A DNA stretch of 64,000 bases from a virus, in the IMG/VR virus record IMGVR_UViG_3300021130_000224, positions 32,001 through 96,000 of that record. One strand, 5' to 3'. A model generated the notes under the pieces. It worked only from the letters and a program-made list of their open reading frames with translations, did not search any database and had not been told where the DNA came from. A program made the position numbers and the translations under genes. Below, in pieces: positions 33,201 to 49,706 of this stretch. The number at the start of each line of letters is the position of its first letter. Position 1 is the stretch's first letter.

Positions 33201-36200
33201 AGATAACTCTAAAATGCAGGTTACTGTAACAGAAGGTATTGATTCAAATGGTAAAAAGGTTGCAAATAAAAAAATGAATGCAGTTACCAGGTTCATGCAA
33301 GCAATGAATATGAACCTTTCAGGTAATTTCTACTTTGTAACATCTGCAGATAGTTCACAAGATTGGGGGGCAAGAACAGGTGAGACTGGTAAGTTTTATA
33401 TTCCACCTTCTGTCTACAACAACACTAAATACGTTGGTGATATTTTTGCCGGCTATTTAAGAGCTGAGATAGAAACAATCAAGGATTTTAATGTAAATCC
33501 TGAAAAGCAAAAGTGGGAGCAGCTTAATAAAAAAGTAGGTGGTAGTAAAATAGGAGAGCAACTTCGTTTCTTCAAAGGTCTTCTTTCTAAAGATGCTGTA
33601 AAAAAGGTAGAAGAATATGCAAATGGCAAAGGTCCAGATGCAGAGTTAAGTACTTCTGAATTTGTTAAAAAGATTCAGTCTGATGTAAATGAAGGCTTGA
33701 ATAAATACATAAGTCAGCAAGTTGAAGATGCTAAAAAGATGTTGCAAAAAGCATCTATAATAGAGAAAGGTACTCAAGGTTATAGATGGTATGGTTTAAG
33801 CGAGAGAGTAAGAGATTTACTTAGTGCTGACCTTGAAAATAAGCTTGGTAGAAAAGAAAGACCCACCGGTGATTACAAGAAGGATAGAGATCTTCGTATT
33901 GTTTATAATGAGAAAGAAATAAACGATATTATTAAGTTTAGAACACTTAATCATCTTGCTCATGGTATTGAGATGAACAAAGTATTCTTTGGAGATCCTG
34001 CTATGTATAAAGATCCTTTTAAAAGAATGAAGCTGTTTATGTCAGGTAAAGACTTTACTCATACCGATAAAGGTATAGGTGTAAGTAATCTTGTGTTAGC
34101 TGATAAGTACAATAAAGTAGGTGCTCATACTTTAAAGAAAGGACAAGTAGGTTATCATGATTTTACTGATACTCTGAAAATATTTACTTATGACTTTGGT
34201 GATAGCCCAAGTACTAAAATTGCATCTGCAAACTGGAAAGAATTACCTGAAGCATATCAAAGTAATAATTCTATTGATGGTCAGTCTCATATAATGTTAC
34301 CTTTCTACCGTGAACACAAGTTAAAGGAGGGTACATGGCCGGATGATAGAGAAGCTCAGTATCAGTATGATCTTGCTTTATTTAGAAGAGAGGCAACCAA
34401 GAGGTTTAATGCAGGGGAGAAGAAATTTGAGAAGTTTGCTTACAAAAATAATGAAGATGACAAAGCCCTAAAAGCTGAGGATGATAAACTGCTTGCTCAA
34501 GGTAATCCTAAGGTAGCAAATGCATTTTATATTGATAAGCCACTTGCTGTAGGTATGTACCAATCACAATCAAGAATGGTACCATATGCACTTAAAACAT
34601 CAACTCTTCCACTTTCTTGGGAACTTGTAAGAGGTAAGGCACTTGAAGATAAATACTTGATGATGCTGGAATCAGGTACTGCTTATAGTGGTCCTAAATC
34701 TCAGCAAAAATTTGGTATACCAGAAGGTGCACCTGAATTGTATAGTAAAGTAACAGGAAAGCTTGCTCTTACTGGTGAAATAATAAAAGCAAAACAATTA
34801 CCTGTTAGTTGGTCAGACTGGGGTAAAATATTAGAAACATCAGGTGAGAAAGAAAAGATTACTCTTGGTTCTCAGGGTACTAAACTTGATCATCTCCATT
34901 TGTTTACAAGAGGTATACCTAATGACTTTATGACAAATCTTTCTTATAAAGAAAGAAATGATCAATGGTCTAAACTTTCTCCAAAGGCCAAAATTGAAAA
35001 GAGCGAGTTTTATAAACTTTATGACAATAAGAATAAAGCGTTAAGTGCACTTGCTTCTCATGGTCTTGAAGTAATAAAGGATGAAATAGGTATAAGTAAA
35101 AATGATGCCGGTGAATATGAATTGATGGATGCTTCTAAACTTGTACATTTTCTTAACCAGGAAATTACCAGAAGAGAGTTACCTCAGAATATGAAGGATG
35201 CTTTAGGTGTATATTTAAACCCTAAGTCTGGTAAAATTGAGTTGACAAATGCTCTTGAAACACTTGCTAATTTCAATCAGATACGTTCTATCATAAACTC
35301 TCTTATCGACAAACATATTAACTCACCTAAAGTGAATGGTAAAGCATTAATACTTGCTTCATCTGCAATGTTTGAAGATGCTTCAAAAGGACTAAGAGTT
35401 GAAAAAATAAATGGTAAAGATGTACTTGTATCAGATCATCTTGAATTTTACCGTATAGGTAAAGATGGTAAACCTACTAGGAGAATGCAAGTAATGATGA
35501 CCAACTTTATGTATAATGAGTTAAAGAAGAAATCTAAGCTTTCTGATGCTGAATTGATGAAATATCTGATGACAGAAGAAGGTAAAGAACTTTTGTATGG
35601 TATAGGTTTCCGTATTCCTACTCAAGGTCTAAACTCTATAGATTCATTTGAAATAGTACCTTTTGATTTAAGGTATGATAAAGATGGACAAATAGATTAC
35701 GAGAACAGTAAAATGTTTGTTCCTAATACATATGGTGACATGATGGTTGTTCCTGCAGAACTTACTACAAAAGCAGGTTCCGACTTTGACGTGGATAAAT
35801 TGTTTAGTTATCTGAAGAACTTCTATATTGATGGTAAGGGTTACCCAAGACTTGTAAAGTTCTTAGATGAAAATAACTCTACTCCAGAAGAAAGATATGT
35901 TCGTTACGTTAAAGATAGTGCTGATAAGAAAACAAAAATTGCTATTAGTGCAGAACGTACTGAAGAAGATGACTATGAAAAAGAACAGTTCTTTGGTAAG
36001 TTAAAAGATGAAGTAAAACAAGCAAGAGAACTTGGTGTAAAGGATATTAAAGCTAATATCAAAGAACAAATCAATGACATTAGAAAACAGGCAATAGAGC
36101 AATCAGATAGTGTATTTGCAGAGCTTAGAGAGGTAGGTAAAAAACTGTATAGCAATTTAAGTGAGGAAGTACTTACTGAGTTTAAAGCTCTTGCTGCAGA

Positions 36201-39200
36201 AAACAAAACTAATAGTGTAAAAGGCCCGGCAGAGATAACTTCTTATTTTACTCTATCTTCTGTTCTACTTGAAAGAAGTGACCTTGATGAGAATGATAGA
36301 AATAGTCTTTTAAACATGAACCATCTCTATCAGAAAGAACTTGAGCAATTAGGTTACAATCAGGAATGGATAGATGAAAGAAAGAAAGAGGTTATTGAAA
36401 AATATAAAGCAAGCAAAGAGCTTATTAATGCTAAAATAGGTGAGATCAGACAAGGTGAAGTTTCAGCATTCTTTGAAGCATTAAATAAGCTAAACAAAGA
36501 AGGTGAGTTTGACTTACATAAAAAGATAGCAGAAGCATCAGGTATTATGTCTTTTGAAGAATTTAATACAAAAAATATCTTTGAACAGAATACCAAAGAA
36601 GCTATTGAGAATAAGTATCAGCAAAACATACATGATATTGTAAGCCATCCTTATAATTTTGATAAGCTTGTTGAGCCCAATAGTGCAGAAGAGCTTAAAT
36701 CTTTTGAAGCTAAACTTGAAGAAACTCGTAATTCTAAAAAGTCACAGAAAGAAAAAGATCTACTTGCTGAGGAAAAAGCACGTAAGAAATCAGGTAACGT
36801 AGATTACCTGGATACTATTGACCCTATCAAGGTGTCAGAACAAAGGCAGGTAATGCTTACTGCAAAAAATCAAATAGGTATTGCTGCTCAGGCAAATACA
36901 GGTAACTCACTTGCACATAGTGCACCAGAGCCAATTGTTATTGATTCAAATGTACCATTGTCTTCACAGGATCTTAAAGAAATACCTGTAGATGCAAATG
37001 GTAATAAAGATTATTCAATAAAGCTTGCACACAATAGTGTAGAAAAAGATGGTAGAAAATTACCTACTATATCTGGAGGAGAAGTTAATCTTGGTAAGAT
37101 ATCCGGATTGATTTCACAAATAATAGATGGTTCAGTGGATGCTGCAAATGATCCTTATTTGATGAGAGTATTCCCATCAAAGGATGCTGTATCAACTGCT
37201 GTTATGTTGACAAGGCTTGGTTGTGATATAGGTGATATAGTAATGTTCTTGAACCAACCTATTCTTAAAGAATTGTATTCTAAACAAGAAGCACTTGCAG
37301 CAAGAAGATTATTTGATCCTACTTATAGGAAATCAAATGATACAATGCTTCAGAATGTTAAAGCACAATTTGGCAAAGGTAAACCTGTGTTTGTAGATAA
37401 AGTATTGTCTTTTGATATGTTATCTGATATGATTGCTGAGTATGAAGTAAATCCTACCTTGAGAGGTAAAGATGAGTATTCTGCATATCAACGACTGATA
37501 CTTGATGAATACAAGAAGTATAAGCTTTACTCAGACCATCTGTTCCAATTCCAAATGGGTACTACCTGGGACGGTTTGGATAATCCTTCTCCTGCTTCTG
37601 TTTATTTAAAAAACAGAATATTGGAGCAAACTAAATGGGGTAATGTATTTGGTGACGGTAATCAAATACTTAAAGATAGCTTTGTAAAGACCAGAAAAGA
37701 GACTGTGGAAGAAGGTGCTAAAGCACTTGAAAAAGTATACAAAAATACTTTTCCTTACATAAAGTCTATATGGGATGCATTTAGTAAACGTACCATTCGC
37801 ATAGGCAATGATGCTAAGAGAGCAGCAATGGATAAAGCCAATATTTCATTTATTGATTACCTTACTCAGATAACTACATTACCAGGTGGTAAAACAATGA
37901 ATGCATATATTGGTGAATTGTTCTTTAAAGATGATGTGTTTGCACAAGAGTTTAATAAAGCAAAAAGAGAAAATGCTAAAAAGAAAGGAACTCCTGAGTA
38001 CAACATGGCTTTGAACATGCTAAGGTTAGATAGACAGATCTTCTCAAGGGATAGCAGAACACTTTCATTGAGAGAGAAATCTAAAGATGCTTCTATACAA
38101 AATATTCTTACTGACAGTTTCAGAGAACTGAAGCAAAGTAACCCCGCACTTTATGAGAAAATAGTTTTATTTGGCCATCTGCAGTCAGGTGTTACTGATA
38201 CTAAACTGTCTTTCAATAAATTTATACCTCACGAAGATTATAGTAAAGCTTTGATAAGAGGTATTGAACAACTTGATGGAGGTGATAAAACTATTCTTGA
38301 ACAGTTTACTAAAACTAACCAGTTTTATAAAAACAACTGGATAAATGATGAGATAGTACCTTCTGTAGGTAGTTATCTTGAAGGTGAATATAGAGCAGAT
38401 AATGTTTCTAATTCAGTAATTGTACTTCAGAAAGGTAAGTATGGATCTGAAAATCCTGCTGTCAAGGTAATGAGTAGACTGAACCCTACAACCGGCAAGT
38501 ACTATACAGAAGCTGAAGAAGCTGATCTTGAAGGAAAAGGTTTTAGATTTAAACAAACACCTAAGCTATTCCGTAGAATAGAAACAGACAATGAACCATA
38601 TACAGTTACTGATTCTAAAGGTAATGAGTACTATGTATTCAAACAGATAAATGCTTTAGGTGATGGTAATAATGTTCAGGAATACTATACCACAAATGAA
38701 CCGTCAAAAAGAGATCTTCATTTTAAAATAACAGAAGACTCAGATGATACGGTAATAGATGCTGTTGATAAGAGATACTCTGGTGGCAAGGTAACTAATG
38801 AGGAAGAAGATATGGATGATACATTTGAATCAACATCTACTGTTGCAACACCTATAAATAGAGAGTTGTCAAACATAAAATTTGAAGAACATCCATCTAC
38901 AAACTATGCAGACAGAACAAAAATAAATGCTTCTTCTGATGCAACTATAGCACTTGCTACAGACTTTACTTCTGCTGGAGAAAAAGCTACTAAAAATTCA
39001 GTAGAACAGCAAGGTAAAAAATACATACCAATTGATTTGAATAAAGGTTTAGACGTTACTCAAGAAAGAGTTAACAAATTAGTACAGATGCTTAATGAGT
39101 CTGCAGGGAAAGATTTATTTGCTAAAAAAGAAATATCTCTAAACATTGCAGGTAATGGTATATATACTATGAAAGGTAGATATACACAAGAGCAAGTAGA

Positions 39201-39981
39201 TGATTTTACATATCAATTACTCAAAAAAGCTATTGAATCCCCTGATCTTAAAGTTAAAATATCAAGTATTAATACAGGTGGTCAAACAGGTTTAGATGAA
39301 GCTGGTGCAAAAGCCGGATTAAAATTAGGAATACCAACAAAAATACTTGCACCAAAAGGTTGGAAATTCAGAGATATAAATGGTAATGATATTTCTGATG
39401 AAAAAAGATTTAAGGATAGATTTAAAATGAGTATACCTGTATCTACAGAACGTACTACAGTAAAACCAAATACAAAAGGTGAGTATAATATTTATGCAGG
39501 TACCGGAGAAAATGTAGTTTTATCAAATATGACACCAAGAAAGTTTATTTATAATGGTGGAGAATTTAATTCAGTAGAACAAGCATTTCAGGAAGCTAAA
39601 CTTCAGTTTACAAAAGGTACTGAAAAAGATATTGCCACTCATAAAAAAATCAGTGAAGCAAAATCAGCTTTTGAGGCTAAAAAATATGGCAGAGAATACA
39701 GTACATTAGATGCAAAAGCTTGGGATGAAAATAGTAGTAAATTTATGAAGATGTTTATTAAATCATCTTTTGAACAAAATCCACAAGCACTTAAAGAATT
39801 GCTTGCTACTGGTGATGCTAAACTTACACATAATCAAGATGCTGGTAAATGGGGTACTGAATTTCCAAAAATCCTTATGGAAGTAAGAGATGAATTTAAA
39901 GGTAAAACAACTGCAGAACCAGCAGTAGATGCAAGAGCAAAAAATAATGAAGAAGGTAATAAACCAAATCCAGCATGTTAG
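24226..39981 (+). CDS. Giant virion-packaged DNA-dependent RNA polymerase (phi14:2 gp66-like), polyvalent, with zincin, SLOG and NADAR domains
   Basis: GFRIPTQ (about 35605-35625) and catalytic AGSDFDVDK (DFDVD at 35782-35796); HEAFH at 31276-31290; GGQTGLDEAG SLOG motif; C-terminal NADAR motifs. Confidence 0.85.
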   Translation: MPGTDQFGFPTLPNMDNSQKDANQTLSENQNNVVNPAFVLPSLTRESKNLIPNKSSASGVFDDIMKTAETLTSKGPSLTELTTKTAQDVPKEYRTGKFPMYYGPETEDFYGKSQGTGEKLLYGVGRGISSGSRAFLQSTVGLVNDIASVSTGGSFTDNNLNKWFDTWQKADDLDMPLYQTKEERDRSGWDPRGWVTGNNVAHFIESLGFMAGMAGGAYVTAGAGEFAIGARVTGSIMAAYDEAIASFSELAAKQAILVGVEDGEVVAKALSQQLMNDVKAIQAEATSGAVKLDKVNKLLNASKADLDAKYAAKLLGAEKIKQTIYGGIGNLGIASSAGFEAKEQFKQNYIDSMRERGFELTPEELQKLEGVSTSVARWTATVTGALGAISFGHAFKGIVAKGEAETAVREEINNLVNKEILTSEEIAANKIAKTATGPHIEGKTEYVDPTQATKKADNFIGKVTQSARRVGKVAGQNIGKIYDPFGAITMAEFSMVSPAIENYFSKQYQTGDADVWADAIGPNLERVFGTKEGIGELISGGLASGFFQVGENIKTSGKRKSATEAAANGMNKTYMGTYLKDLTQSIKVGRAFDEEEKDAIMSGDKKKQYDSRMSKLFAYMLPRVKHGKLEYIKSDIRGYRELLATDEGRKQLRASGELPAEGDLVKQAEELNQHLNKIEAYAENADKTYKALRLNHGSDPRFKDEVFEKLLYASSMIDNASERIVNISKELDTNKDITPQIRTQLVELQKLMSRPLTAEESFELLKNLGESREEIINKLSGRKNISDLRNKIVSNIKGLSINETKQQELIGKMGDMLKLTNSKTGYLKDYQTMILNPEMAHDFSRNSLPGFHEEMPMGKGEGEEGGPEKLTKTIKVKHAGSPFILGSDGKKIFTPSDLEVGEEYIGGVRELYDEYKGEPTKMKNFPKFRLEGEVEKERQTSKGILKEKKILISVPVGENGDRRYMEIDPKVFEKYKLTKLKDLQKNEEAMFYVNHANDVFTYEFQKGNSDAIKDGIITFDKDKNVLAFRYRSNDGKVRDHVIDLQRALEEDRLKFKDSKKEISKEEYDRIKNYRDPNYTMKAARQIEIIDEATKEYRTELEEVKGRIKEREDLLGQLQDTIAGIQEKMKKQGTTKKSLTQYTKELVYMQELHDSLHDDLEPLLARREELQSHSDIVEGLKSNILNHPNGVEFIEYLKKSQENIKAEKEKNDTAIEHLKGLISKAKDFIVTLKDSLLKRIAKFEARYPSETPGRIGEMSQSEANTLLTILRANEYDFPKKQGITYDDSSLWKEEQIGTQNPSRLTEQTRALKEFLETNRDFFKDRDEILKDTNILDVKENEIEANEKAIAELLADNKELEKVFNILDKITKQFEEEYKRWKEDVVLTQAYRESPSAQRVLREMQAAMNANSLPIVPTSLLDKAVRAVLRKIPFFKMKGLQRNPFADSIIVDSTNKNTSFYQQHNNWPDRERDFTANLTKWSFKLNGSKFGLGSAIEPDNVKVMVVNTGNQSAFGFEGFVPESYQSYDKSETIFNKGENRDNSRAQVALVYTYQDESGRTFTIDKDGNLLSEIKPGAEQHDFDNMVFTYLDHSNLKRTGAYRAGESKFYDAESFSQDELNAIQASATSMRKKLLDLNGQLLLDFDVMGGFINKPKELDEEISDGTEGDEEPKKKPVINRSVTEVGLMSDSDLSKPNILAVATDVDPENNKVARVDGELIPTALPFLRLKSGKPVILTTNRFTKEQAENIYNVLKKIANSMFRAYGKSEGSAEEGAVDRLRNVSTGKEISAMWRYLSTISYFRRPEEGETLDRNQFYLDGKGNIVMGKTSWKFDPKTLNDPEVKEKIITIIAGSDKIPGLFHNVDSLSLRERGTEPFEEYIVDDNGNVKEVRTWETLNHWYLSDKYPDGTARNKSENDNNIPVTINANVPSSTGDVAIEGRYIKVRGIGEEYKPKIKEKKTEQTHPSAAPKPKAPEPQSAQGKTEPIEEFSFELNGNKYPITDGKIEIVQDYTTYTIIPKIEGNNIKIENAQWSIKDPKTGEVKTAEAKTALKDVFEQKLKEQYADHLAKQAEANKPAEPVVTTDVPVSDIEARRAEIEIKIQEKLKQLDESDKRSLEAIMPNNPNHPTFKVGMRYNDGMRVIIQNAKPSDNFDGREDSYIAITKIIEPAEYRADGKMTKAAKIETTIFNTKEEADKAIADTYAKIQAQVKEGKRQKDANAKFDTELAALDKEGTSTTEEPQVIPAEPQIETKSGKPETTSNVVESVREKAQRLKDQLNGNPPNTRIVQPGEVAVSDHKGHEEFITWLKDKLPGVKYNELHDVVRITGAKSAWGIAKDHIISVFKDAPLSAKYHEAFHPVFDVFLTDREKANVIREFKNRQGKFFDLGSGKYINFADATVYQIADRLAEEFGIYKTTGKMPEYTPKQQNFFKRLWAALTNIFRTPTTIDSIFKKVDEGGFRNTEPLREIGINNYSTVQGLRNRFTEQEISANVKGIALEIYRNLRLDTGKMLKTLEGKTTFKELIDPIKELFNWRFHLEDSEAKFMENGVFTIHAPDSPFGDVQKDSLTQNWQNVLDNWDDYMSEVKSFLKTKGIDFVKKEISGDLEEGESIKESAGEESNNRDYAGDIFQSDAKNNSPKEIKLIFGFVTEDDYDNDLIAKSNFRLQENPKPKMNAISGMDQMSTDTDYFYVVMKEMANVSGLDEMKNKFLSLAQKIPSLVRPYKAIFGEPTANNQPTAEMLRLQHLFEKTFNKQVVTPFMQKISGKESSATINSDSERDTRQIVNDFLSNMTGLHMNTDIVSMDQHGNYTFNTKVLKDPTHKDFIPNPRNGQFPEQKEQMSLEFLNKIGFNFPKEVFNKLSKQDKEKLTKESMRLYDELYRVTAKGSGALISRSGITTPAVDKIADIYLKAERGFRSTQRFTIDGEPAQRYVLHNNLSQNLSEINQVESREKLLQVKPYYGTDPFCQESLLLKENGMWFAETETKGDTRYTPWKDNSKMQVTVTEGIDSNGKKVANKKMNAVTRFMQAMNMNLSGNFYFVTSADSSQDWGARTGETGKFYIPPSVYNNTKYVGDIFAGYLRAEIETIKDFNVNPEKQKWEQLNKKVGGSKIGEQLRFFKGLLSKDAVKKVEEYANGKGPDAELSTSEFVKKIQSDVNEGLNKYISQQVEDAKKMLQKASIIEKGTQGYRWYGLSERVRDLLSADLENKLGRKERPTGDYKKDRDLRIVYNEKEINDIIKFRTLNHLAHGIEMNKVFFGDPAMYKDPFKRMKLFMSGKDFTHTDKGIGVSNLVLADKYNKVGAHTLKKGQVGYHDFTDTLKIFTYDFGDSPSTKIASANWKELPEAYQSNNSIDGQSHIMLPFYREHKLKEGTWPDDREAQYQYDLALFRREATKRFNAGEKKFEKFAYKNNEDDKALKAEDDKLLAQGNPKVANAFYIDKPLAVGMYQSQSRMVPYALKTSTLPLSWELVRGKALEDKYLMMLESGTAYSGPKSQQKFGIPEGAPELYSKVTGKLALTGEIIKAKQLPVSWSDWGKILETSGEKEKITLGSQGTKLDHLHLFTRGIPNDFMTNLSYKERNDQWSKLSPKAKIEKSEFYKLYDNKNKALSALASHGLEVIKDEIGISKNDAGEYELMDASKLVHFLNQEITRRELPQNMKDALGVYLNPKSGKIELTNALETLANFNQIRSIINSLIDKHINSPKVNGKALILASSAMFEDASKGLRVEKINGKDVLVSDHLEFYRIGKDGKPTRRMQVMMTNFMYNELKKKSKLSDAELMKYLMTEEGKELLYGIGFRIPTQGLNSIDSFEIVPFDLRYDKDGQIDYENSKMFVPNTYGDMMVVPAELTTKAGSDFDVDKLFSYLKNFYIDGKGYPRLVKFLDENNSTPEERYVRYVKDSADKKTKIAISAERTEEDDYEKEQFFGKLKDEVKQARELGVKDIKANIKEQINDIRKQAIEQSDSVFAELREVGKKLYSNLSEEVLTEFKALAAENKTNSVKGPAEITSYFTLSSVLLERSDLDENDRNSLLNMNHLYQKELEQLGYNQEWIDERKKEVIEKYKASKELINAKIGEIRQGEVSAFFEALNKLNKEGEFDLHKKIAEASGIMSFEEFNTKNIFEQNTKEAIENKYQQNIHDIVSHPYNFDKLVEPNSAEELKSFEAKLEETRNSKKSQKEKDLLAEEKARKKSGNVDYLDTIDPIKVSEQRQVMLTAKNQIGIAAQANTGNSLAHSAPEPIVIDSNVPLSSQDLKEIPVDANGNKDYSIKLAHNSVEKDGRKLPTISGGEVNLGKISGLISQIIDGSVDAANDPYLMRVFPSKDAVSTAVMLTRLGCDIGDIVMFLNQPILKELYSKQEALAARRLFDPTYRKSNDTMLQNVKAQFGKGKPVFVDKVLSFDMLSDMIAEYEVNPTLRGKDEYSAYQRLILDEYKKYKLYSDHLFQFQMGTTWDGLDNPSPASVYLKNRILEQTKWGNVFGDGNQILKDSFVKTRKETVEEGAKALEKVYKNTFPYIKSIWDAFSKRTIRIGNDAKRAAMDKANISFIDYLTQITTLPGGKTMNAYIGELFFKDDVFAQEFNKAKRENAKKKGTPEYNMALNMLRLDRQIFSRDSRTLSLREKSKDASIQNILTDSFRELKQSNPALYEKIVLFGHLQSGVTDTKLSFNKFIPHEDYSKALIRGIEQLDGGDKTILEQFTKTNQFYKNNWINDEIVPSVGSYLEGEYRADNVSNSVIVLQKGKYGSENPAVKVMSRLNPTTGKYYTEAEEADLEGKGFRFKQTPKLFRRIETDNEPYTVTDSKGNEYYVFKQINALGDGNNVQEYYTTNEPSKRDLHFKITEDSDDTVIDAVDKRYSGGKVTNEEEDMDDTFESTSTVATPINRELSNIKFEEHPSTNYADRTKINASSDATIALATDFTSAGEKATKNSVEQQGKKYIPIDLNKGLDVTQERVNKLVQMLNESAGKDLFAKKEISLNIAGNGIYTMKGRYTQEQVDDFTYQLLKKAIESPDLKVKISSINTGGQTGLDEAGAKAGLKLGIPTKILAPKGWKFRDINGNDISDEKRFKDRFKMSIPVSTERTTVKPNTKGEYNIYAGTGENVVLSNMTPRKFIYNGGEFNSVEQAFQEAKLQFTKGTEKDIATHKKISEAKSAFEAKKYGREYSTLDAKAWDENSSKFMKMFIKSSFEQNPQALKELLATGDAKLTHNQDAGKWGTEFPKILMEVRDEFKGKTTAEPAVDARAKNNEEGNKPNPAC

Positions 39982-40538
39982 TATTATCAGCTCACACGGA
40001 TGTTGTAAGACATGACATCCCACTTACAAATGACAAAGGCACTATGGTCGGGTTACTTGATAACCTGGCCGGTGTCATTTGTATGTACAATGCTATTTAC
40101 TCTAATCCTTCGATTCAACATGCTCTTGCTCAAGGTGATATTAAAATTTTTCACAACAGACATGAGGAGTTTGCGTATGCTGTAAACTTTCCCGACCTTG
40201 ATCCAGAGAAAGATTTTGTTATCAATATTGATGTGTGTGCCGGCGAAAGATATCAGGGTATGGATGCCGGCATTGAGAACTTGTATGGCAAGAAAATAGC
40301 TGAAGTATTAAACGCTCTTGAATGGGAAGGATTTAAGTTCTACTTTTGTGAGTACACTGGAGACCCGGAAGAAGCTGACGAAATGGATCAGTGGGTTGAA
40401 AAGAAAATACCAGGTCTTTCTTTTATTATTCCTATTGATTGCCCGAATGATAACTGGCATGGTGAGGCCCAGCTTCCAATGGAAAGAATGACCAAAGCAA
40501 TACTTATGTTACAAAGATTAATCTGTTATTTATTATAA
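39975..40538 (+). CDS. Minimal M28/M20-clan zinc peptidase/amidohydrolase
   Basis: Metal-ligand motifs in canonical order: SAHTD, GLLDNLAGV, HEE, INIDV, NWHG. Confidence 0.7.
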   Translation: MLVLSAHTDVVRHDIPLTNDKGTMVGLLDNLAGVICMYNAIYSNPSIQHALAQGDIKIFHNRHEEFAYAVNFPDLDPEKDFVINIDVCAGERYQGMDAGIENLYGKKIAEVLNALEWEGFKFYFCEYTGDPEEADEMDQWVEKKIPGLSFIIPIDCPNDNWHGEAQLPMERMTKAILMLQRLICYLL

Positions 40539-40539
40539 A

Positions 40540-41820
40540 ATGGCAAATACAAAGAACAAAACGATACTGGTCCACGATAGTGGTGCATTTTTTGAAATCG
40601 CCCTGGCACTTGCAGATCACTATAAGCAAGTGCTTTATTATGTTCCATGGGAAAGTGGATTCCCAAGTCCTGATAAGGCCCGGGTGGGCACAGAATGGGT
40701 CAATGGTAAACAACTTGATACATTTGATGGAAAAACATTCAAACGTGTGCCAGAGTTTTTTGAGGCATTAAAAGAAGCAGATATTGTATTCTTTACCGAT
40801 TGTTATAATGGTGACCTGATGGAACATCTCAGAGAGATGGGTTATCCTGTCTGTGGTTCTGGCCGGGGCCAAATCCTGGAACTTGACCGTTGGCTATGCA
40901 AGCAGACTTTCAAAGCTGCCGGCATGGATGTAAATCCAATGAAGCGAGTTACAGGAATGACAGCATTGCGTGAGTTGTTGAAGAAAGAGGAAGATCGTTA
41001 TATTAAAATATCTCGATATAGGAAACTGGTTGAAACATTCCACCATGAGACCTACCAGCTCTCTGAGGCAATCCTTGACAAAATGCAGCACGAATTGGGC
41101 CCAATGGCAGAAACCATTGAGTTCATTATTGAAGAGCCAATTGAGGCCATTGTAGAGGAAGGAATCGACTGTTATACAGTTGATGGTAAATACCCAAAGA
41201 ATACTTTGGCCGGCACTGAGGTAAAAGACAGGGCTTATTATGGTGAGATAATGGATTACGATAAATTATCTCCCGGGGTACAGAGGACTACTAACCAGAT
41301 ATCACCAATGCTGAAGAAGTATGGATATAAAGGCTTTTTCAGTACAGAAGTAAGAACAACTAAACATGATGAAAATTTTTTATCTGATTTCACGGCAAGG
41401 CAACCTATGCCGCCTAGTCCTCTGTACACAATTATGTTCGAGAACCTGGGTGAAATCATTTGGGGTATAGCTAATGGTGAGATTGTTGATATCAAACCAA
41501 AGTACAAATGCGGTTTGTATGTTACACTGTATAGTGACTTCTTCGATAGTGACCACCAGCCGGTATGGTTTCCGAAAGAGTACCGGGATAACGTCAAGAT
41601 ATCTTACCCTATCAAGGTAGATGGTAAATATACCGCTATTAATATCAATGGTTTTCCTGAAGTAGGTAGCGTAGTTGTGGGTGGTAACTCTTTTGAGGAA
41701 TGTTACAAGCTGATGGAAAAGATTGCTCCGGAAGTAAAAGGCTATGGACTCAAGATTGAAGTCAAAGATTGTGAAGTAGCTAAGGGTGAGTTTGATAAAA
41801 TGATGGGTAAAAAATCATAA
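40540..41820 (+). CDS. ATP-grasp amide ligase, PurD (GAR synthetase)-like
   Basis: GYPVCGSG...LELDRWLCKQTFKAAGM, YIKISRY, FIIEEPI, GYKGFFSTEV...DFTAR fit the ATP-grasp/PurD architecture; the PurD GxGGRE PRA-binding loop is not present. Confidence 0.7.
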   Translation: MANTKNKTILVHDSGAFFEIALALADHYKQVLYYVPWESGFPSPDKARVGTEWVNGKQLDTFDGKTFKRVPEFFEALKEADIVFFTDCYNGDLMEHLREMGYPVCGSGRGQILELDRWLCKQTFKAAGMDVNPMKRVTGMTALRELLKKEEDRYIKISRYRKLVETFHHETYQLSEAILDKMQHELGPMAETIEFIIEEPIEAIVEEGIDCYTVDGKYPKNTLAGTEVKDRAYYGEIMDYDKLSPGVQRTTNQISPMLKKYGYKGFFSTEVRTTKHDENFLSDFTARQPMPPSPLYTIMFENLGEIIWGIANGEIVDIKPKYKCGLYVTLYSDFFDSDHQPVWFPKEYRDNVKISYPIKVDGKYTAININGFPEVGSVVVGGNSFEECYKLMEKIAPEVKGYGLKIEVKDCEVAKGEFDKMMGKKS

Positions 41821-41821
41821 T

Positions 41822-42211
41822 ATGGCAAAATTAGCAACTGCTGCAGAAAATGCTTCTAGGTTTGTACCCACCTCGATGGAGAGTGAAGGTATGGGAAAGA
41901 AGTGGTTATTAAAGGAAATGATGCATACAGAGTATCTCTGTGTTGAACATCCACATGTAGCACTCAAGTTTCTGCCTGGGGGAATCCTTCAGGTATTTGG
42001 TGAGCAGAAACAACCAATCATTCACCGATATTCTATTTCTCACCAGGTTGATGAGGATGAATACTATATGGAGGTAATACCTAACCTGACTGATGAGCCA
42101 GGTAAACTGAAAATGGACATAATGAAGAATCATCTAACTTTGACTAATAAAAATGGTGAGGTCCTTCATCTGAATAAACTTAATTTAAGAGCTTACGACA
42201 ACGCTAAATAA
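41822..42211 (+). CDS. Hypothetical beta-rich protein
   Basis: 129-aa ORF tightly packed between the ATP-grasp gene and the 1835-aa gene. Confidence 0.55.
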   Translation: MAKLATAAENASRFVPTSMESEGMGKKWLLKEMMHTEYLCVEHPHVALKFLPGGILQVFGEQKQPIIHRYSISHQVDEDEYYMEVIPNLTDEPGKLKMDIMKNHLTLTNKNGEVLHLNKLNLRAYDNAK

Positions 42212-42212
42212 T

Positions 42213-45200
42213 ATGGCAATCTGGGGTACTGACTGTGGCCGGGTAAAACTTTCCGGTAAAATGATCAAATCTGTTTCTGCTAAAAACGGAAATGAATCAA
42301 AATTGTATAAAGATATATTAGAACAGCTTGATACTTTACCAAAAGAAGAAGTTGATCAGCTCAGAAAATCTTTTAAAGATTGGGAAGGGGATATTGTAGG
42401 AGATGTTGATAACAAGCGACATCTGGCTTTAGCATTATATGCTAAAACAAATAGTCCAAATTTTAAAAATGAGTTCAAAGGACAATTTGATAACAACAAT
42501 GAACCTGTGTCAAAAGATGCATTAGATATTCTTTTAAAGAAAAATGAAGAACTACAAGAACAAAAAGTAGAATCAGAGGATATATATAAACAACTGCCTA
42601 CAGAAAAGGAGGAAACAAAACCATCAAAAGCATCTGAAGTAACAGTTGATGAGTTTAAAGAATTTTTGAAACGTGCAGGTATACCATTGAATGAAATGGT
42701 TAAAGGTAGGGTTGATGAAAATGGTAATCCTATTACTCCTGAAAATGCTGCTTATATTTCGGAAAGACTTGTAAATGTTATTGATGGTGAACAAGCAACA
42801 GCATTACCAGAAGAGGCATCTCACCATGCTGTTCAGTATATAAAAATACATGACCCTAAGTTATTCAAAGCAATGATGAATAAGGTGGGTAATTATAATT
42901 TATATGGAGAGATTGCTGAACAGTACAAAAATGATTCTGCTTATAAATTAGAAGATGGTAAACCAAATATTCCAAAAATCAAGGAAGAAACCTTAACAAG
43001 GTTATTTGTTGAGAATGTTATTAAAATTAAAGAAGGTAGTACTGAAAAACCGGAACTTGTTGCACAAACTCAAACTTGGTGGAAACAAGTAATTGAATCA
43101 TTACGTAGCTTCTTTAATACCGGTTCTTTTGATCCGTTCAGAAAAGCAGCAAAACAATTTGTTGAAAAAGAAGGTGCTTTTTCAGATGAGAATGTAAAAA
43201 ACAAAGTTGATCAATTAAAAGATTGGAAATCAAGTGAAAACTTTAAAGACTTTTCTACAAACACAATAGAAAACTTTAAGGGTGTTGTTGAACAAGTACC
43301 TGATCATACTGCTATTGTTACTCATGGTACTGTAATATCATTACTTAAAACCTGGAAGGATAATAAATACCAGGATGGAGAAGTATCAATGGATGTTTTC
43401 CAAAAACAAGAAATTAACAATGGTCACATTGAAGAGATAGATTATAACGGTAAAAAGATATTTCTTGTTCGTCATGGTGAATCAGAAGCAAATGTTGATG
43501 ATGTAGAATCAACTGATAATACCCCTCTTACCCAAAAAGGTAAAGAAGATGCAATGAAGGTTGCTCAAGAGCTTCGTGATAAAGGTATTGTCAAAATTGT
43601 ATCTACTGAAACAGACAGGACAAAAGGAACTGCAGAAATTATCAGAAAAGAATTAGGACTCTCTGACAAGTTTGCTCAGGTAGATAAACAGAAAGCTACT
43701 TTTGATGCTATTGTTGCAACTCTTAATAAGATCAAAAAAGAAGTTACTGCTGATGAGAACTACTACTTAAATGTAGAAAAGAATAAAAAGGTTCAGAATA
43801 GAATAACCGATAGAGCACAACGTATAGTAGATGCTGCTTTTGGCGACAGAGAAATAAGTGAAGAACAGCGTAAAGAATGGGATCAAAAAGCTGCTACAGG
43901 TAGTGCAGGTCATGATGATATTGCTAATATCTTCTCAAGGTATATTGATAAAACAACCGGTTTTGTAAGAAAGAAAAATGGTCAGTTTGCACCATTAGAT
44001 ATGGAGGGTTACGTTTCTAAAATAAACCCAGATAACGATGATTATTATAGCATGCTTGAAAAGATGATGCGAGATGTCATTAGTGAATACCCTGAAAATA
44101 CCAGGTTTATATGGGAAACACCTATTTATAATGAACTTACTGATGAAGCAGGTACTCCTGACTTTCTTGCTATTCTTCCTGATGGTACTGTAGACAATCT
44201 TGACTGGAAGTTTCTTGATATTAAGGATAATGTAAAGGATATAGCCAAATATAAAAAGAAAGCATTCAATGTTCAAATGAAAGGCTATGCCGAAATACTT
44301 CGTAATTCTTATGGTGTAGAAAAAATAGGTAGAAGCAGAATCATGCCTATACAAGCAAAGTACAAATTTGATGACATTACAGGTCAAAAAATATTTGCCG
44401 GCATAGAGATTGCCAATAGTGAAGACAACTATAAAGGGGAAAAAAGAGACTATCTTATTCCTCTCCCATCTGAAGTAGAAACAGTAAGAGAAAACTCAGA
44501 AATACAAGATCAAGTTGAGAAAATGAATAAACTTCTTGATCAGCTTTCTAAACAGAAAAAAGAAGAAATTAGCGAAGACAAAAAAAGAACTTATGAGCAA
44601 AGAATTGCAGAGGTTATGAAAGCAATTCGTTATGCTCAGGTAAAAAAAGATGCAACATCTGCAGTAGAATCTATTAGTGGTTACCTAAATGAAATAGGCC
44701 CTAAGTTTAAAGAATACATGAAGATATTTGAAGAAGGTAAGGAGTCTCAATATACACTTAGTGACTTAAATAGAATGGCAGATGAAGTGTACCGTTCTTA
44801 TGAATATCTTGCTCCTTTTTACAACCTTGAGCACGTATATAAAGATCCGGAAACAAAAGCAATGCTTTATGATCTATCTTACAGAATAAGTGAGGCAGGT
44901 AAATATATGGATAAACTAAGTGCTTTACTTATAGAAAAAGGTGTAGCAAATAGATTTAATCTTTTTGGTGTAGCAGGTACTGATCCTATGACAGGTAAAC
45001 CATTTGCTGACCAATTAGTAAGTTGGGGTAAAAAGCTTTGGACTACAAGTGCTAATGCAAAAACAAGAGCCGGTCAATTATTTCATCATGTAAGAGATTT
45101 GGTTTATCAAAAATCAACTTTTAAAAATATGGAAGTGCAAGATGGATACGATAAAATTGCACAACCTGTTTTAGAATGGGTAAAGAAAAGGTCCAGAAAA

Positions 45201-47720
45201 GAACTTGACAAATTACTATTAAAGCAAGGTAAAGATCAATGGGGGCTTCATGATAAATACTCAAAAGAGTTTGATACTAAACTTCAGAAAGCCCAGAAAG
45301 ATGGAGACCTTAATTGGATAGTTGACAACATAAAGTTAAAAGACTACATGATTGATTATGAAGAAAGGTTTAATAAATACATGAAATGGGCTACTGAGTA
45401 TTTTTCTAACTATACTGATAATACCAGTAGAAATGAACAACTTCTTGAAGAAGCTAAAACAGACTTTCAAAAGAAGTATGATATCAAAGCTTATCCTAAA
45501 ACTGCTATTGCTATATCCAATGATAGATTAAAGCGATTTCCTACAGATACTTGGTTTTCAAATGAGTACAAGGAACTAAATAAATCTGAAAATGCACCTC
45601 TTCTTGAAATGTATAATTACATGCAAAAAAGGTTTAAAGAAGCTCATGATATAGGTATATTGGATCATAACTATATGCATTTTATACCAATGGCACCAAA
45701 TTCATTTGTTGAAACTGTAACATGGGGAGATAATAAATTTAAGAATATTATTAGAAACATAGGCTCATCTGTTACATTGCGACCATTTGATGCCGGTTAT
45801 ACTAATCCTATTACAAAAGAACCTGAAGACAAGCTGCTTGCAAGATATGTATCTGATTTGTCATCAAGAGATGCTGAAGGCAAAAAAGACTATTCTAATT
45901 TATCAAGAGATGTACTTTCCTTAATGCCATTATTTAACCTTGAGATGGTAAAGTATGAGTATGCTAAAGACATAGAAGGCATCGTTAAACTTCTGCTCAA
46001 GGTAGAAAAGAATAAACCTGTTCTACGTACTAACTCTTGGGGAGAACCTGTAGTAAAAGAAGGAAGAGTGCAAATGATGGATAGTCCTGAAAATTATGAG
46101 CACCTAAGAAAAATGATAGACTCTCATTTTTATGGAAAATCAGGTTCAGATGATCAGAAAGGATGGGGCTTTAAGTTTGATTATAACGGTATGGCTAATA
46201 AAGTAAATAAATTTATGGGTTCTGATGTAATGCCTTTATCTGAAGATGAAAAGGTATTTGTTTCTTTTCCAAAACTTATTGAAACAGTAAATAGAAATCT
46301 TACAATTAAAGCACTGGGCGTTAATCCATTTAGTGCATTATCTAACTATTTTGGTGGTAATTTCCAGGCATGGATAAATACAGGAGAAGTAGAAAGAGAT
46401 GATTTTGATTTTGCAAAAGTTCTAATTGGAAAAAATAACTTTTTAGCTACTGAAGAAACTAAAGTCATAGGTGGTCTCATGCAGTATTTTTCCCCTTTTA
46501 CTGCTGAAGAAACAAATGAAAATGCAAGAAAATATAGCCTTAATGATTGGAATAAATGGTTATCTACTCATACATTAATGACCATGATGAGAGGCAGTGA
46601 TCATTCGGTTGAAATGGTGACATCTTTGGCACTTATGAAAAACCTTATGGTTGTAGATGGTAAGTTAGTTAATATATGGTCTCATTTAAAAGAGAAATAT
46701 AACTACTCATCTATTTACAGCATGGAGTCACCACAAGCAAGAAAAGCTATTATTGATAAAATGAAAGCAGAGTATAAAGATCTAAAAGAAAAAAATTCCA
46801 TTGTAAAAACTTCTAAAATAGTAGATGGTAAAATAGAAATACCCGGTCTTATCAAAAACGATACATCTATATTCACTGCAAGAGCCAAAATGCAGAAAAT
46901 GGTAATGGATGCATTAGGTAATAGAACTCCTTATCAGAAAATGCAAATTGATCAAAACATTTTTGGTGCATCACTTATGGTATTTCATCACTGGATACCA
47001 CCATTAGTAAACACCAGGTTTGATAATTTACAATATGTTGCAAGTGCTCAAACTTACAAGTGGGGGAGATGGAAAATGTTAGGTGCAGCATTGCATGAAA
47101 AAGGCATAGGTGCATTTGGTCATCTTATTTCACATCTTAGTAATAGTGATGAAGATATTATCGCAACTGCAAAAGCTTTGTATCAAAAGAAAAGGCAAGA
47201 ATTTTTACAAACCGGTGAAATAAGCAATTTTGATAAAAACATGACAGAAGCTGATTTTATAGACATGTATAAGAAAAACATGGAAGCCAATTTTATTGAT
47301 GCATTGTCTACACTTTCTCTTATATCAGCATATTATGCAGCAACTGCAATGGCACCTGATAAAGATAAAAAAGGAAGAGGTTGGTACAAAGCATCTTTAA
47401 AAATGTTAGACAAGTTTTCAGATGAGCTTGCATTCTTCTATTCACCTGCTTCGTTTTATAGACTTGTAGGTAATGCAAAGTTACCAATAGTAAATACTGC
47501 TCTTAATACTTATAAGTTTTTAAAAGCTGCAGGTAAAGAACTTTATTATGATGCAAAAGGTGATAAAGAAGCTGCTGAGAAAAATAAAGTTTTAAACCGT
47601 GTAATAAACGAAGTACCTCTTATAAATCAAGTAGTTAACTTTTGGACAATGTTTGATGACGATCTGTCAGTAGAAATAAAAGGTAAAGTTACTCCTGATG
47701 ATCCTAACAAACCATTATAA
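42213..47720 (+). CDS. Large polyvalent virion protein: zincin-like, permuted histidine phosphatase and PD-(D/E)XK domains, plus a helical C-terminal region
   Basis: PEEASHH (42807-42827); VTHG then LVRHGESEAN; AGTPDFL..DNLDWKF..QMKGY. Confidence 0.7.
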   Translation: MAIWGTDCGRVKLSGKMIKSVSAKNGNESKLYKDILEQLDTLPKEEVDQLRKSFKDWEGDIVGDVDNKRHLALALYAKTNSPNFKNEFKGQFDNNNEPVSKDALDILLKKNEELQEQKVESEDIYKQLPTEKEETKPSKASEVTVDEFKEFLKRAGIPLNEMVKGRVDENGNPITPENAAYISERLVNVIDGEQATALPEEASHHAVQYIKIHDPKLFKAMMNKVGNYNLYGEIAEQYKNDSAYKLEDGKPNIPKIKEETLTRLFVENVIKIKEGSTEKPELVAQTQTWWKQVIESLRSFFNTGSFDPFRKAAKQFVEKEGAFSDENVKNKVDQLKDWKSSENFKDFSTNTIENFKGVVEQVPDHTAIVTHGTVISLLKTWKDNKYQDGEVSMDVFQKQEINNGHIEEIDYNGKKIFLVRHGESEANVDDVESTDNTPLTQKGKEDAMKVAQELRDKGIVKIVSTETDRTKGTAEIIRKELGLSDKFAQVDKQKATFDAIVATLNKIKKEVTADENYYLNVEKNKKVQNRITDRAQRIVDAAFGDREISEEQRKEWDQKAATGSAGHDDIANIFSRYIDKTTGFVRKKNGQFAPLDMEGYVSKINPDNDDYYSMLEKMMRDVISEYPENTRFIWETPIYNELTDEAGTPDFLAILPDGTVDNLDWKFLDIKDNVKDIAKYKKKAFNVQMKGYAEILRNSYGVEKIGRSRIMPIQAKYKFDDITGQKIFAGIEIANSEDNYKGEKRDYLIPLPSEVETVRENSEIQDQVEKMNKLLDQLSKQKKEEISEDKKRTYEQRIAEVMKAIRYAQVKKDATSAVESISGYLNEIGPKFKEYMKIFEEGKESQYTLSDLNRMADEVYRSYEYLAPFYNLEHVYKDPETKAMLYDLSYRISEAGKYMDKLSALLIEKGVANRFNLFGVAGTDPMTGKPFADQLVSWGKKLWTTSANAKTRAGQLFHHVRDLVYQKSTFKNMEVQDGYDKIAQPVLEWVKKRSRKELDKLLLKQGKDQWGLHDKYSKEFDTKLQKAQKDGDLNWIVDNIKLKDYMIDYEERFNKYMKWATEYFSNYTDNTSRNEQLLEEAKTDFQKKYDIKAYPKTAIAISNDRLKRFPTDTWFSNEYKELNKSENAPLLEMYNYMQKRFKEAHDIGILDHNYMHFIPMAPNSFVETVTWGDNKFKNIIRNIGSSVTLRPFDAGYTNPITKEPEDKLLARYVSDLSSRDAEGKKDYSNLSRDVLSLMPLFNLEMVKYEYAKDIEGIVKLLLKVEKNKPVLRTNSWGEPVVKEGRVQMMDSPENYEHLRKMIDSHFYGKSGSDDQKGWGFKFDYNGMANKVNKFMGSDVMPLSEDEKVFVSFPKLIETVNRNLTIKALGVNPFSALSNYFGGNFQAWINTGEVERDDFDFAKVLIGKNNFLATEETKVIGGLMQYFSPFTAEETNENARKYSLNDWNKWLSTHTLMTMMRGSDHSVEMVTSLALMKNLMVVDGKLVNIWSHLKEKYNYSSIYSMESPQARKAIIDKMKAEYKDLKEKNSIVKTSKIVDGKIEIPGLIKNDTSIFTARAKMQKMVMDALGNRTPYQKMQIDQNIFGASLMVFHHWIPPLVNTRFDNLQYVASAQTYKWGRWKMLGAALHEKGIGAFGHLISHLSNSDEDIIATAKALYQKKRQEFLQTGEISNFDKNMTEADFIDMYKKNMEANFIDALSTLSLISAYYAATAMAPDKDKKGRGWYKASLKMLDKFSDELAFFYSPASFYRLVGNAKLPIVNTALNTYKFLKAAGKELYYDAKGDKEAAEKNKVLNRVINEVPLINQVVNFWTMFDDDLSVEIKGKVTPDDPNKPL

Positions 47721-48677: not shown

Positions 48678-49706
48678 TTGAAAAAGGTAACGATACTTAT
48701 CTCAGTACCCTTTGACCTGTATTTTGCCTCGGAAATAGAAGTACAGTGTCACAACTTTAGAAAGTTTGGGTACAGTTCAGCTCTCCAGGTCATTGTTTAT
48801 GAAACCGGTGAGAATACATACAGGGAATACTGGGATAGATTGGCAGAAAGGTATAAGGAGGTTAAGTTCTTCTTCTACAGCGATGATAGCATTCAACATA
48901 TAGTGAAAGCATATCCTCCTTATATCCGGCCATTCTGCTTTCAAAAGCATTGGATGGCACATCCGGAACTTAAAGATTATACCATAATCTACCTTGATGG
49001 TGATGTAATATTTAGCAAGCACTTGGATTTTTCAAAGTATATTAACGATGACATTTGTTATATGTCAAGGACAAAATATATTGATGCTAATTATTTTGCC
49101 GATAAGCGAAAAGATGTACTACCATTCAGACTTGCTGATTACGATAAAGTTGATGTGCTTGGAAACATGGCAGCAATTGCAGGTATAAGTAAACAAACTG
49201 TAATTGACAATATCGAGAACACAGGAGGCTGTCAGTATATTCTAAAAGATATAACTGCTGATTTCTGGGCCGAGCTTGGTGATATGTGCATACAAATAAG
49301 TATGTACGCAAAAGACATCAACAGACAGTTTTTTTCGAGCGAAGATAAAGGCTTTCAATCCTGGGCTCTTGGTGATATGTGTGGACTACTGTGGCTTCTT
49401 TGGAAGCAAGGTAAAGAAACACGATGTCCGGAAGAACTTGGTTTTAGTTGGTCAAGCAATCCAATAGCAGAGTATGACAAGTATGCATTCTTTCACAACG
49501 CCGGTGTAATTAAAAACTACATGGAGTTACATGGTGAAAAACGAAAGTTGTTTAACAAGAATGATTTACGTTTTAGATCAAATACTCTTACCTTTTTCGA
49601 TTTGGAATATGAGGGTATATCCGAAGATTACTGTAGCATCATGTATGTAAAAGCAATCAAGGAAGTTAAAAACCCAATTTGCAAAACAAACAAATTATTA
49701 TACTAA
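48678..49706 (+). CDS. GT-A fold glycosyltransferase (resembles protein O-glycosyltransferases of the GT95/GT96 type)
   Basis: RPFCFQKHW...IIYLDGDVIF DxD motif, GGCQYIL, SWALGDM and FFHNAG; TTG start. Confidence 0.6.
   Translation: MKKVTILISVPFDLYFASEIEVQCHNFRKFGYSSALQVIVYETGENTYREYWDRLAERYKEVKFFFYSDDSIQHIVKAYPPYIRPFCFQKHWMAHPELKDYTIIYLDGDVIFSKHLDFSKYINDDICYMSRTKYIDANYFADKRKDVLPFRLADYDKVDVLGNMAAIAGISKQTVIDNIENTGGCQYILKDITADFWAELGDMCIQISMYAKDINRQFFSSEDKGFQSWALGDMCGLLWLLWKQGKETRCPEELGFSWSSNPIAEYDKYAFFHNAGVIKNYMELHGEKRKLFNKNDLRFRSNTLTFFDLEYEGISEDYCSIMYVKAIKEVKNPICKTNKLLY

Follow-up and report, generated by a model that had tools for sequence, protein, structure and literature searches.

The virus record IMGVR_UViG_3300021130_000224 (a freshwater phage; 108 kb, estimated to be 93% complete) carries, between two giant genes, a three-gene cassette coding for a predicted metal-dependent hydrolase of 187 residues, a predicted ATP-grasp ligase of 426 residues, and a small protein of 129 residues. 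We analyzed 64,000 nucleotides of this record (positions 32,001 to 96,000), which we refer to as the window and number from its first nucleotide. The modeled structure places the ligase confidently among the PurD-fold ATP-grasp ligases, and its sequence points to an amide ligase of PurD architecture other than PurD itself; it belongs to a large, mostly phage-borne family. The gene neighborhoods support a functional link between the hydrolase and the ligase, and we tentatively favor a two-enzyme pathway to a small-molecule amide, in which a helper enzyme would provide or recycle an amine or acid that the ligase then condenses. The open reading frames (ORFs) of the cassette and its two neighbors are as follows.

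39975-40538, plus strand: 187-residue ORF, predicted minimal MH-clan (M42-like) dinuclear-metal hydrolase
40540-41820, plus strand: 426-residue ORF, predicted PurD-fold ATP-grasp carboxylate-amine ligase
41822-42211, plus strand: 129-residue ORF, fold unassigned, probable clade-restricted accessory gene of the cassette
24226-39981, plus strand: 5,251-residue ORF immediately before the cassette, bearing cpYpsA-SLOG and NADAR domains at its C-terminal end
42213-47720, plus strand: 1,835-residue ORF directly downstream, predicted polyvalent-type protein with a histidine-phosphatase domain

The 426-residue protein is matched by no Pfam, PHROG or NCBIfam model, and a PDB search with its sequence alone returned no match. 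A profile built from 49 family sequences matched PurD structures at E=2e-8, and the AlphaFold (AF2) model of the protein (predicted local distance difference test score [pLDDT], 95.1; predicted template modeling score [pTM], 0.93) retrieved only PurD structures at ranks 1 to 13 of a Foldseek search (E from 5e-21 to 5e-17; template modeling [TM] scores of 0.63 to 0.74), with biotin carboxylase, PurK and PurT ranking below them. The PurD enzymes (EC 6.3.4.13; 1VKZ, 2YW2, 2QK4 and 1GSO) share the four-domain (N, B, A, C) ATP-grasp fold with the model at TM scores of 0.69 to 0.74, and hhalign gives a colinear profile alignment with Escherichia coli PurD over residues 67 to 396 (E=3.6e-6). The likeness to PurD recognized in the first-pass annotation of this DNA is thus substantiated. 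The ligase nonetheless differs from PurD in that identity is only 11 to 15%, no GARS Pfam domain is found at threshold, and the gene is phage-borne, lying within blocks of virion genes and beside non-purine partner enzymes.

Comparison of individual residues separates the retained ATP site from the substrate sites. The ATP, magnesium and acyl-phosphate residues of PurD are Glu100, Lys103, Lys143, Glu185, Glu192, Asp212, Lys214 and Arg287 (PMC8880213), and their equivalents are kept in the ligase as, in the same order, E114, R117, K156, E198/E199, E206, E227, K229 and R287, the last corresponding to the catalytic arginine of PurD. All of these, E198/E199 included, are invariant in the 49 family sequences, as are E270 and D283, two further acidic residues of the catalytic core. 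In human GARS, Arg13 and Glu14 of the GGREHA motif form the proposed phosphate and ribose site, and the glycine-binding residues of PurD are Asp295 and Glu297 within an R-x-G-D-P-E motif (PMC2978367). The phage ligase family has D-S/N-G-x-F-x-E where E. coli PurD has GNGGREHA, and in the hhalign alignment R287-Q-P-M-P-P stands opposite R-F-G-D-P-E (the family consensus being R-x-G-x-P-P) and S-R-Y-R-K-L-V-E faces the GLAAGK B-loop. Because the PurD substrate-binding residues are replaced, the substrates of the ligase are likely to be other than glycine and phosphoribosylamine.

The 187-residue protein is predicted from its AF2 model (pLDDT, 95.3) to be a minimal dinuclear hydrolase of the MH clan, M42-like and consisting of the catalytic domain alone. 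With VIA-align, the model superposes on the M42 entry 3cpx with a Z score of 16.0 (root mean square deviation of 2.7 Å; 170 of 187 residues), on TET peptidases with Z scores of 14.7 to 15.7, on M18 peptidases and M20 deacylases at 13 to 13.7, and on the M28 Aeromonas aminopeptidase at 11.1; the best Foldseek matches are M42, M18 and DapE (probability, 1.0). Residues H7, D9, D29, E64, E65, D86 and H162 are invariant across 24 homologs and follow the metal-binding motif order of the clan (HxD, D(N), EE, D, H), which comprises the co-catalytic ligands (His, bridging Asp, Glu, Asp/Glu, His) and the catalytic Glu, and a weak hhalign alignment to E. coli FrvX (probability, 12.6%) sets D29, E64-E65 and D86 over its LDNR, EE and LD segments. 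The protein had been described as an M28-like peptidase with a full set of metal ligands; the ligand set is borne out, and the M28 assignment gives way to M42 (Z scores of 11.1 and 16.0, respectively). The catalytic-domain fold is shared with M42 (TET/FrvX/TmPep1050), M18, M20 (ArgE/DapE/CPG2) and M28 enzymes, but in contrast to the M42 and M20 enzymes, the phage hydrolase has only 187 residues, lacks an inserted domain, and is coupled to an ATP-grasp ligase. Only 20 residues lie between D9 and D29, with the PDZ-like or dimerization domain absent, and the alignments of the model extend over about 59-302 or more of the target chains although only ∼170 residues match. The hydrolase ranks with the smallest enzymes of the MH clan that have the full ligand set, and it could serve as a minimal scaffold.

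In Pfam, the hydrolase scores best with Peptidase_M20 (E=0.2), where its 12 bits fall short of the 24.6-bit cut-off, so that no model is above threshold; PHROGs and NCBIfam gave no match, and neither did a search of the PDB with the hydrolase profile. One homolog has a precomputed PF04389 match. Matches to MRCK kinases in the PDB, at E=0.03, look like chance and were set aside.

The cassette has the appearance of a unit. Its three ORFs have the lengths and the position between two giants that the first-pass annotation gave them. The start of the hydrolase gene overlaps the stop of the 5,251-residue ORF by 7 nucleotides (ATGTTAG), and the three junctions that follow, between the 187-, 426-, 129- and 1,835-residue ORFs, each consist of a stop codon, one nucleotide, and an ATG, so that all five genes can be read as a single block with translational coupling, within which promoter-like and terminator-like sites are no more frequent than chance. 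GC content is 0.39 to 0.43 across the cassette compared to about 0.32 in the flanks, a difference that had been noticed by eye and that is found at third codon positions (GC3), with values of 0.35 to 0.39 in all three genes and 0.10 to 0.22 in both flanking giants. This shared rise at synonymous positions fits the arrival of the three genes as one unit. GC3 is also raised in the late-block genes at 48678-49706 (0.36) and 10343-15205 (0.30), the neighbors of which have values of 0.12 to 0.21, and the late operon may contain several compositionally foreign inserts.

The hydrolase and the ligase are also joined in other genomes, in keeping with their proposed association. The hydrolase gene lies directly upstream of the ligase gene, touching or overlapping it, in 14 of the 19 informative unique loci, across which hydrolase identity ranges from 34 to 93%, and the ligases paired with it come from two regions of the ligase tree that lie apart. 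Seen from the ligase, the picture differs. Of 78 other viral records that carry the ligase, just 1 has the hydrolase anywhere, and among those with a completeness of 90% or more it is found in 1 of 22, where the two genes are 15 kb apart. The pairing is thus real but one-sided, holding from the hydrolase's side and failing from the ligase's side. These patterns support a functional link between the two enzymes, but because the ligase usually occurs without the hydrolase, an obligatory pair of writer and eraser is unlikely.

The pair also occurs in bacteria. In two Chitinophagaceae chromosomes from metagenome-assembled genomes (MAGs), on contigs of about 1 Mb, the hydrolase gene is again directly upstream of the ligase gene, at the following positions.

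L110, 9312-11269: hydrolase-ligase pair in a MAG contig
L111, 9295-11275: hydrolase-ligase pair in a MAG contig

The neighbors there are housekeeping genes, namely those for a histidine kinase, lipoyl synthase, a DnaJ-domain protein and PriA, and the pair can therefore exist away from giant virion genes. The ligase was found in 2 of 301 sampled Chitinophagaceae genomes, and 14 weak matches in other genomes look like the bacteria's own PurD. The pair is sporadic in bacteria and was probably acquired by transfer; the MAG copies could represent what is left of a phage, or a cassette that has been domesticated. They offer a lead to the host, pointing to Bacteroidota (Chitinophagaceae).

An exhaustive profile search recovered 998 clusters (50% identity) of the ligase family at E<=1e-30. 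The family is mostly phage-borne, no Pfam model covers it, and literature searches found no published description of it. We examined the genomic context in 80 IMG/VR loci, the records of which are about 4 to 112 kb long; in these loci the ligase gene is on the same strand as genes for terminase, tail-fiber, muzzle-like and very large (2,400 to 3,200 residues) proteins; in an Aquificae virus it is a short way downstream of the portal gene. The genomes carrying it range from podovirus-sized ones of 33 kb to 100-kb phages with giant virion-protein genes, and the giant ORF directly upstream of the cassette is kept in related loci. Its roughly 1,000 clusters, which occupy virion-gene blocks in many phages unrelated to one another, have neither a family model nor a name. 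The product of the ligase would add a new reaction to phage biology, be it a metabolite associated with the virion or a modification of a new kind. Such a product would also explain the recurrent recruitment of small decarboxylases, phosphatases and a miniature peptidase to the vicinity of the ligase gene.

Existing labels on family members seem to be at variance with these observations. The homolog of a Thermocrinis virus (L001, BK013347.1, 5995-7185) is labeled in GenBank as phosphoribosylaminoimidazole carboxylase (PurK), which probably reflects the likeness of ATP-grasp folds rather than function, and one JGI homolog is automatically annotated as phosphoribosylamine-glycine ligase. Annotations of ligase-family genes as PurD, PurK or purine auxiliary metabolic genes look misleading.

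Several ligase ORFs are interrupted by inserts of ∼330 to 380 residues, which fall at three sites (near profile positions 196, 220 and 275). The inserts have LAGLIDADG domains and show Hint and intein-splicing signals as well, though these are weaker. One class of insert splits the catalytic motif D283-x-T285 | x-R287 and has the intein junction residues C...N|C. The intein-bearing genes are as follows.

L083, 10575-12914: ligase with an intein after D-x-T
L089, 10566-12917: ligase with an intein after D-x-T
L104, 10575-12950: ligase with an intein after D-x-T
L096, 10564-12843: further intein-bearing ligase gene
L102, 2045-4450: further intein-bearing ligase gene

The ligase allele in the window is without an intein and that of L089, the hydrolase of which is 93% identical, has one. 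The presence of inteins at three sites suggests a conserved enzyme under selection.

Other small genes adjoin the ligase in other phages, and the type of helper tracks the ligase clades in a tree of 84 ligase loci. One of these, c23, is an AdoMetDC-like pyruvoyl enzyme (Pfam score of 28.3 bits against a cut-off of 25) with the self-cleavage motif present, and its gene overlaps or touches the start of the ligase gene in 6 of 8 distinct loci. No AdoMetDC-like protein was found in the window or in the 108-kb genome. Experiments have shown phage proteins of this class to be amine-producing enzymes with AdoMetDC, arginine decarboxylase or ornithine decarboxylase activity (PMC9992855). These phage homologs of class 1b AdoMetDC resemble c23 as small pyruvoyl enzymes, and c23 is the coupled partner of the ligase in the 8 distinct loci, a link to an ATP-grasp ligase that is not described for the phage homologs in that work (PMC9992855). 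A further neighbor, c10, looks structural and follows the ligase in one clade.

The commonest partner of the ligase is c2, a putative metal-binding protein of unassigned type, with ∼125 residues and invariant H, E, D, Y, H and E, which adjoins the ligase on either side in 26 distinct loci and is fused to it in one representative. Some c2 proteins are themselves fused to an Erv1/ALR FAD sulfhydryl oxidase (Pfam E=4.4e-8; PDB 3gwl, E=8e-5), in which C-P-C replaces CxxC; to our knowledge, thiol oxidases are unusual in tailed phages. The c2-Erv1/ALR fusions are located as follows.

L021, 2787-3494
L029, 11262-11960
L034, 5399-6112
L041, 11266-11964

The possibility that c2 is a zincin metallopeptidase was considered and rejected, the matches being limited to weak DtxR-type metal-site matches and single stray peptidase matches. 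A 336-residue form of c2 (L063, 8983-9990) has at its N terminus a domain that resembles HNH endonucleases (Pfam HNH_2, E=7.5e-5).

The ligase itself is fused at its N terminus to an acylphosphatase (52.5 bits) in one representative and to HAD hydrolases in others, one of these HAD domains showing a weak PNKP-type match; representatives P0239, P0165, P0259 and P0208 hold the fusions to acylphosphatase, HAD hydrolases and the c2 domain. The fusion of an acylphosphatase to what is predicted to be an acyl-phosphate-forming enzyme is notable, if suggestive only. The N-terminal extensions of P0153, P0203 and P0238 have no Pfam-level match, and HAD-like motifs can be seen by eye in the two of them that were inspected.

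From these folds, residues, gene couplings, distributions and fusions, we infer the chemistry of a possible amide pathway, its small-molecule product, and the part played by the hydrolase. The ligase would activate a carboxylate as an acyl-phosphate and then join it to an amine. The M42-like enzyme, acting as an amidohydrolase, would free or recycle the amine or acid for the ligase, and the AdoMetDC-like decarboxylase of other phages would supply an amine likewise; where a HAD phosphatase or acylphosphatase is fused to the ligase, it may process the acyl-phosphate or a substrate that is phosphorylated. Late in infection, the pathway would yield a small amide, for example a conjugate of an amino acid or polyamine. 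We favor a small-molecule pathway because decarboxylases, phosphatases, acylphosphatases and partners of the deacylase or aminopeptidase type are enzymes of small-molecule metabolism. Several observations weigh against it. The commonest partner, c2, has no assigned type, and the Erv1/ALR oxidase found on some c2 proteins is a protein-acting type of enzyme; 27 of the 84 loci in the tree have no recognized helper; in one complete 38-kb phage genome the hydrolase occurs without the ligase; and the constant position of the ligase among virion, portal and giant-protein genes fits protein modification too. A more specific version, in which phages would make a virion amide (amino-acid or polyamine) that is co-packaged with or attached to DNA or ejected proteins, using interchangeable helpers that supply the building block from the host, seems improbable as a whole.

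The principal alternative is the tagging of proteins or peptides, in which the ligase would add an amino acid or amine to the carboxylates or termini of virion, ejected or host proteins and the M42-like peptidase would trim it, remove it, or expose the acceptor. We consider this unlikely, though it is the rival with the most in its favor: the ligase is consistently located in the morphogenesis and giant-protein modules of very different phages, the hydrolase has an aminopeptidase-type fold, c2 is at times fused to a thiol oxidase that acts on proteins, and RimK, TTL and LysX provide precedents for ATP-grasp protein ligases. The fold, however, is that of PurD and not of RimK or TTL, and decarboxylase, HAD and acylphosphatase partners would not be expected; moreover, the peptidase is present in just 1 of 78 other ligase-bearing viral records, the bacterial pairs have no giant virion genes nearby, and the 129-residue ORF is clade-restricted and without an acidic C-terminal tail. 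The writer-and-eraser proposal of the first-pass annotation survives as a functional link between the two enzymes, but an obligatory pairing is unlikely given the 1-in-78 occurrence, and the small-molecule type of the partners and the separation of the pair from giant genes in bacteria also speak against the proposal as stated. Its further suggestions fared less well, in that the small protein is limited to close relatives, and a conjugation of C-terminal glycines at AxxG motifs finds no support, the glycine-binding residues of PurD being lost. No homolog of the 818-residue AxxG cargo protein was detectable in two phages with both genes (G001 and G002), a weak test that had no positive control.

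Modification of nucleotides or DNA is decidedly improbable. Here the ligase, like PurD, would take a phospho-sugar amine as its substrate, or else a nucleotide that bears an amine, or it would attach an amino acid or polyamine to a modified base, with phosphatases trimming the phosphate; the nearest folds (PurD, PurK and PurT) all use ribonucleotide substrates, HAD phosphatases are fused to some ligases (one with the PNKP-type match), histidine-phosphatase, NADAR and SLOG domains are present in the flanking proteins, and an amine-producing decarboxylase is the partner in some phages. Against this, the N-terminal phosphate/ribose motif of PurD (PMC2978367) is not conserved, and no base-hypermodification kinases or hydroxymethylases were seen, although no search was aimed at them. 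That the three genes are merely adjacent passengers with no shared function is very improbable. The ligase is alone in most phages, the hydrolase stands alone in the complete 38-kb genome, and the 129-residue ORF is clade-specific, but chance adjacency would have to account for 14 of 19 loci spanning 34 to 93% hydrolase identity, two ligase clades and two bacterial chromosomes, and for genes that overlap or sit one nucleotide apart with a raised GC3 common to all three. Least credible, at an extremely low probability, is a genuine PurD (GAR synthetase) serving as an auxiliary gene of purine synthesis. Both the fold and the sequence profile of the ligase come closest to PurD, and the JGI homolog bears its name; however, other residues stand in place of the GGREHA motif, the GLAAGK B-loop and the Asp/Glu pair that binds glycine, the gene is located in a virion-gene block with non-purine partners, and no GARS domain reaches threshold in the protein. 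The GARS_A Pfam domain is likewise absent from the 108-kb genome, as are PurN-type and PurM-type Pfam domains, whereas control genomes were matched in 14 of 14 cases for GARS_A and in 12 to 14 of 14 for the other two. The earlier judgment that purine synthesis is unlikely thus stands, with the determinants of PurD lost and these domains missing from the genome.

Among known systems, the nearest in writer-and-eraser logic is the LysX/ArgX-LysW-LysK amino-group carrier system, which consists of an ATP-grasp ligase, a small carrier protein and an M20 hydrolase. The cassette has a comparable make-up, with a hydrolase of the MH clan and a small protein alongside an ATP-grasp ligase, but its ligase is of the PurD type rather than the RimK/LysX type, there are no intervening modifying enzymes, the 129-residue protein is clade-restricted and has no acidic tail, and most members of the ligase family are without a hydrolase.

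The 129-residue protein has no Pfam, PHROG or NCBIfam match, and lipocalin-like Atlas matches to it are below trust level. Its 15 homolog clusters all have at least 49% identity, and its gene is downstream of the ligase gene only in L089-L092, L098 and L104; by its sequence distribution it appears to be a clade-specific accessory gene. The C terminus (...D-N-A-K) is variable and has no acidic tail of the kind found in LysW-type carriers. A relationship to the small neighbors c2, c10 and c23 was considered and discarded, all hhalign probabilities being below 1%.

The two flanking giants both appear from their domain content to be polyvalent-type proteins with NAD/ADP-ribose-related enzymes. The last 370 residues of the 5,251-residue protein match PF12694 (cpYpsA-SLOG; 33.8 bits) and PF08719 (NADAR; 51.9 bits), and no RNA polymerase domain was found in this protein by Pfam. 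Residues 416 to 483 of the 1,835-residue protein match Pfam His_Phos_1 (60.9 bits), and the protein in the corresponding position of L098 has His_Phos_1 together with ART-PolyVal.

At least half of the sampled sequence words of the cassette were found in each of 20 freshwater DNA runs (about 19 studies). Short contigs internal to the cassette, at 95 to 100% identity, were also recovered from four lake metatranscriptome studies. These RNA-library contigs are confined to the cassette, with none over the flanks, in runs that were picked by means of the cassette and in which DNA carry-over is possible; they are a weak hint of expression and prove neither transcription nor differential expression. 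One lake RNA contig (at about window position 41407) has the intein C-terminal junction WSGN|C ahead of the part that matches the ligase.

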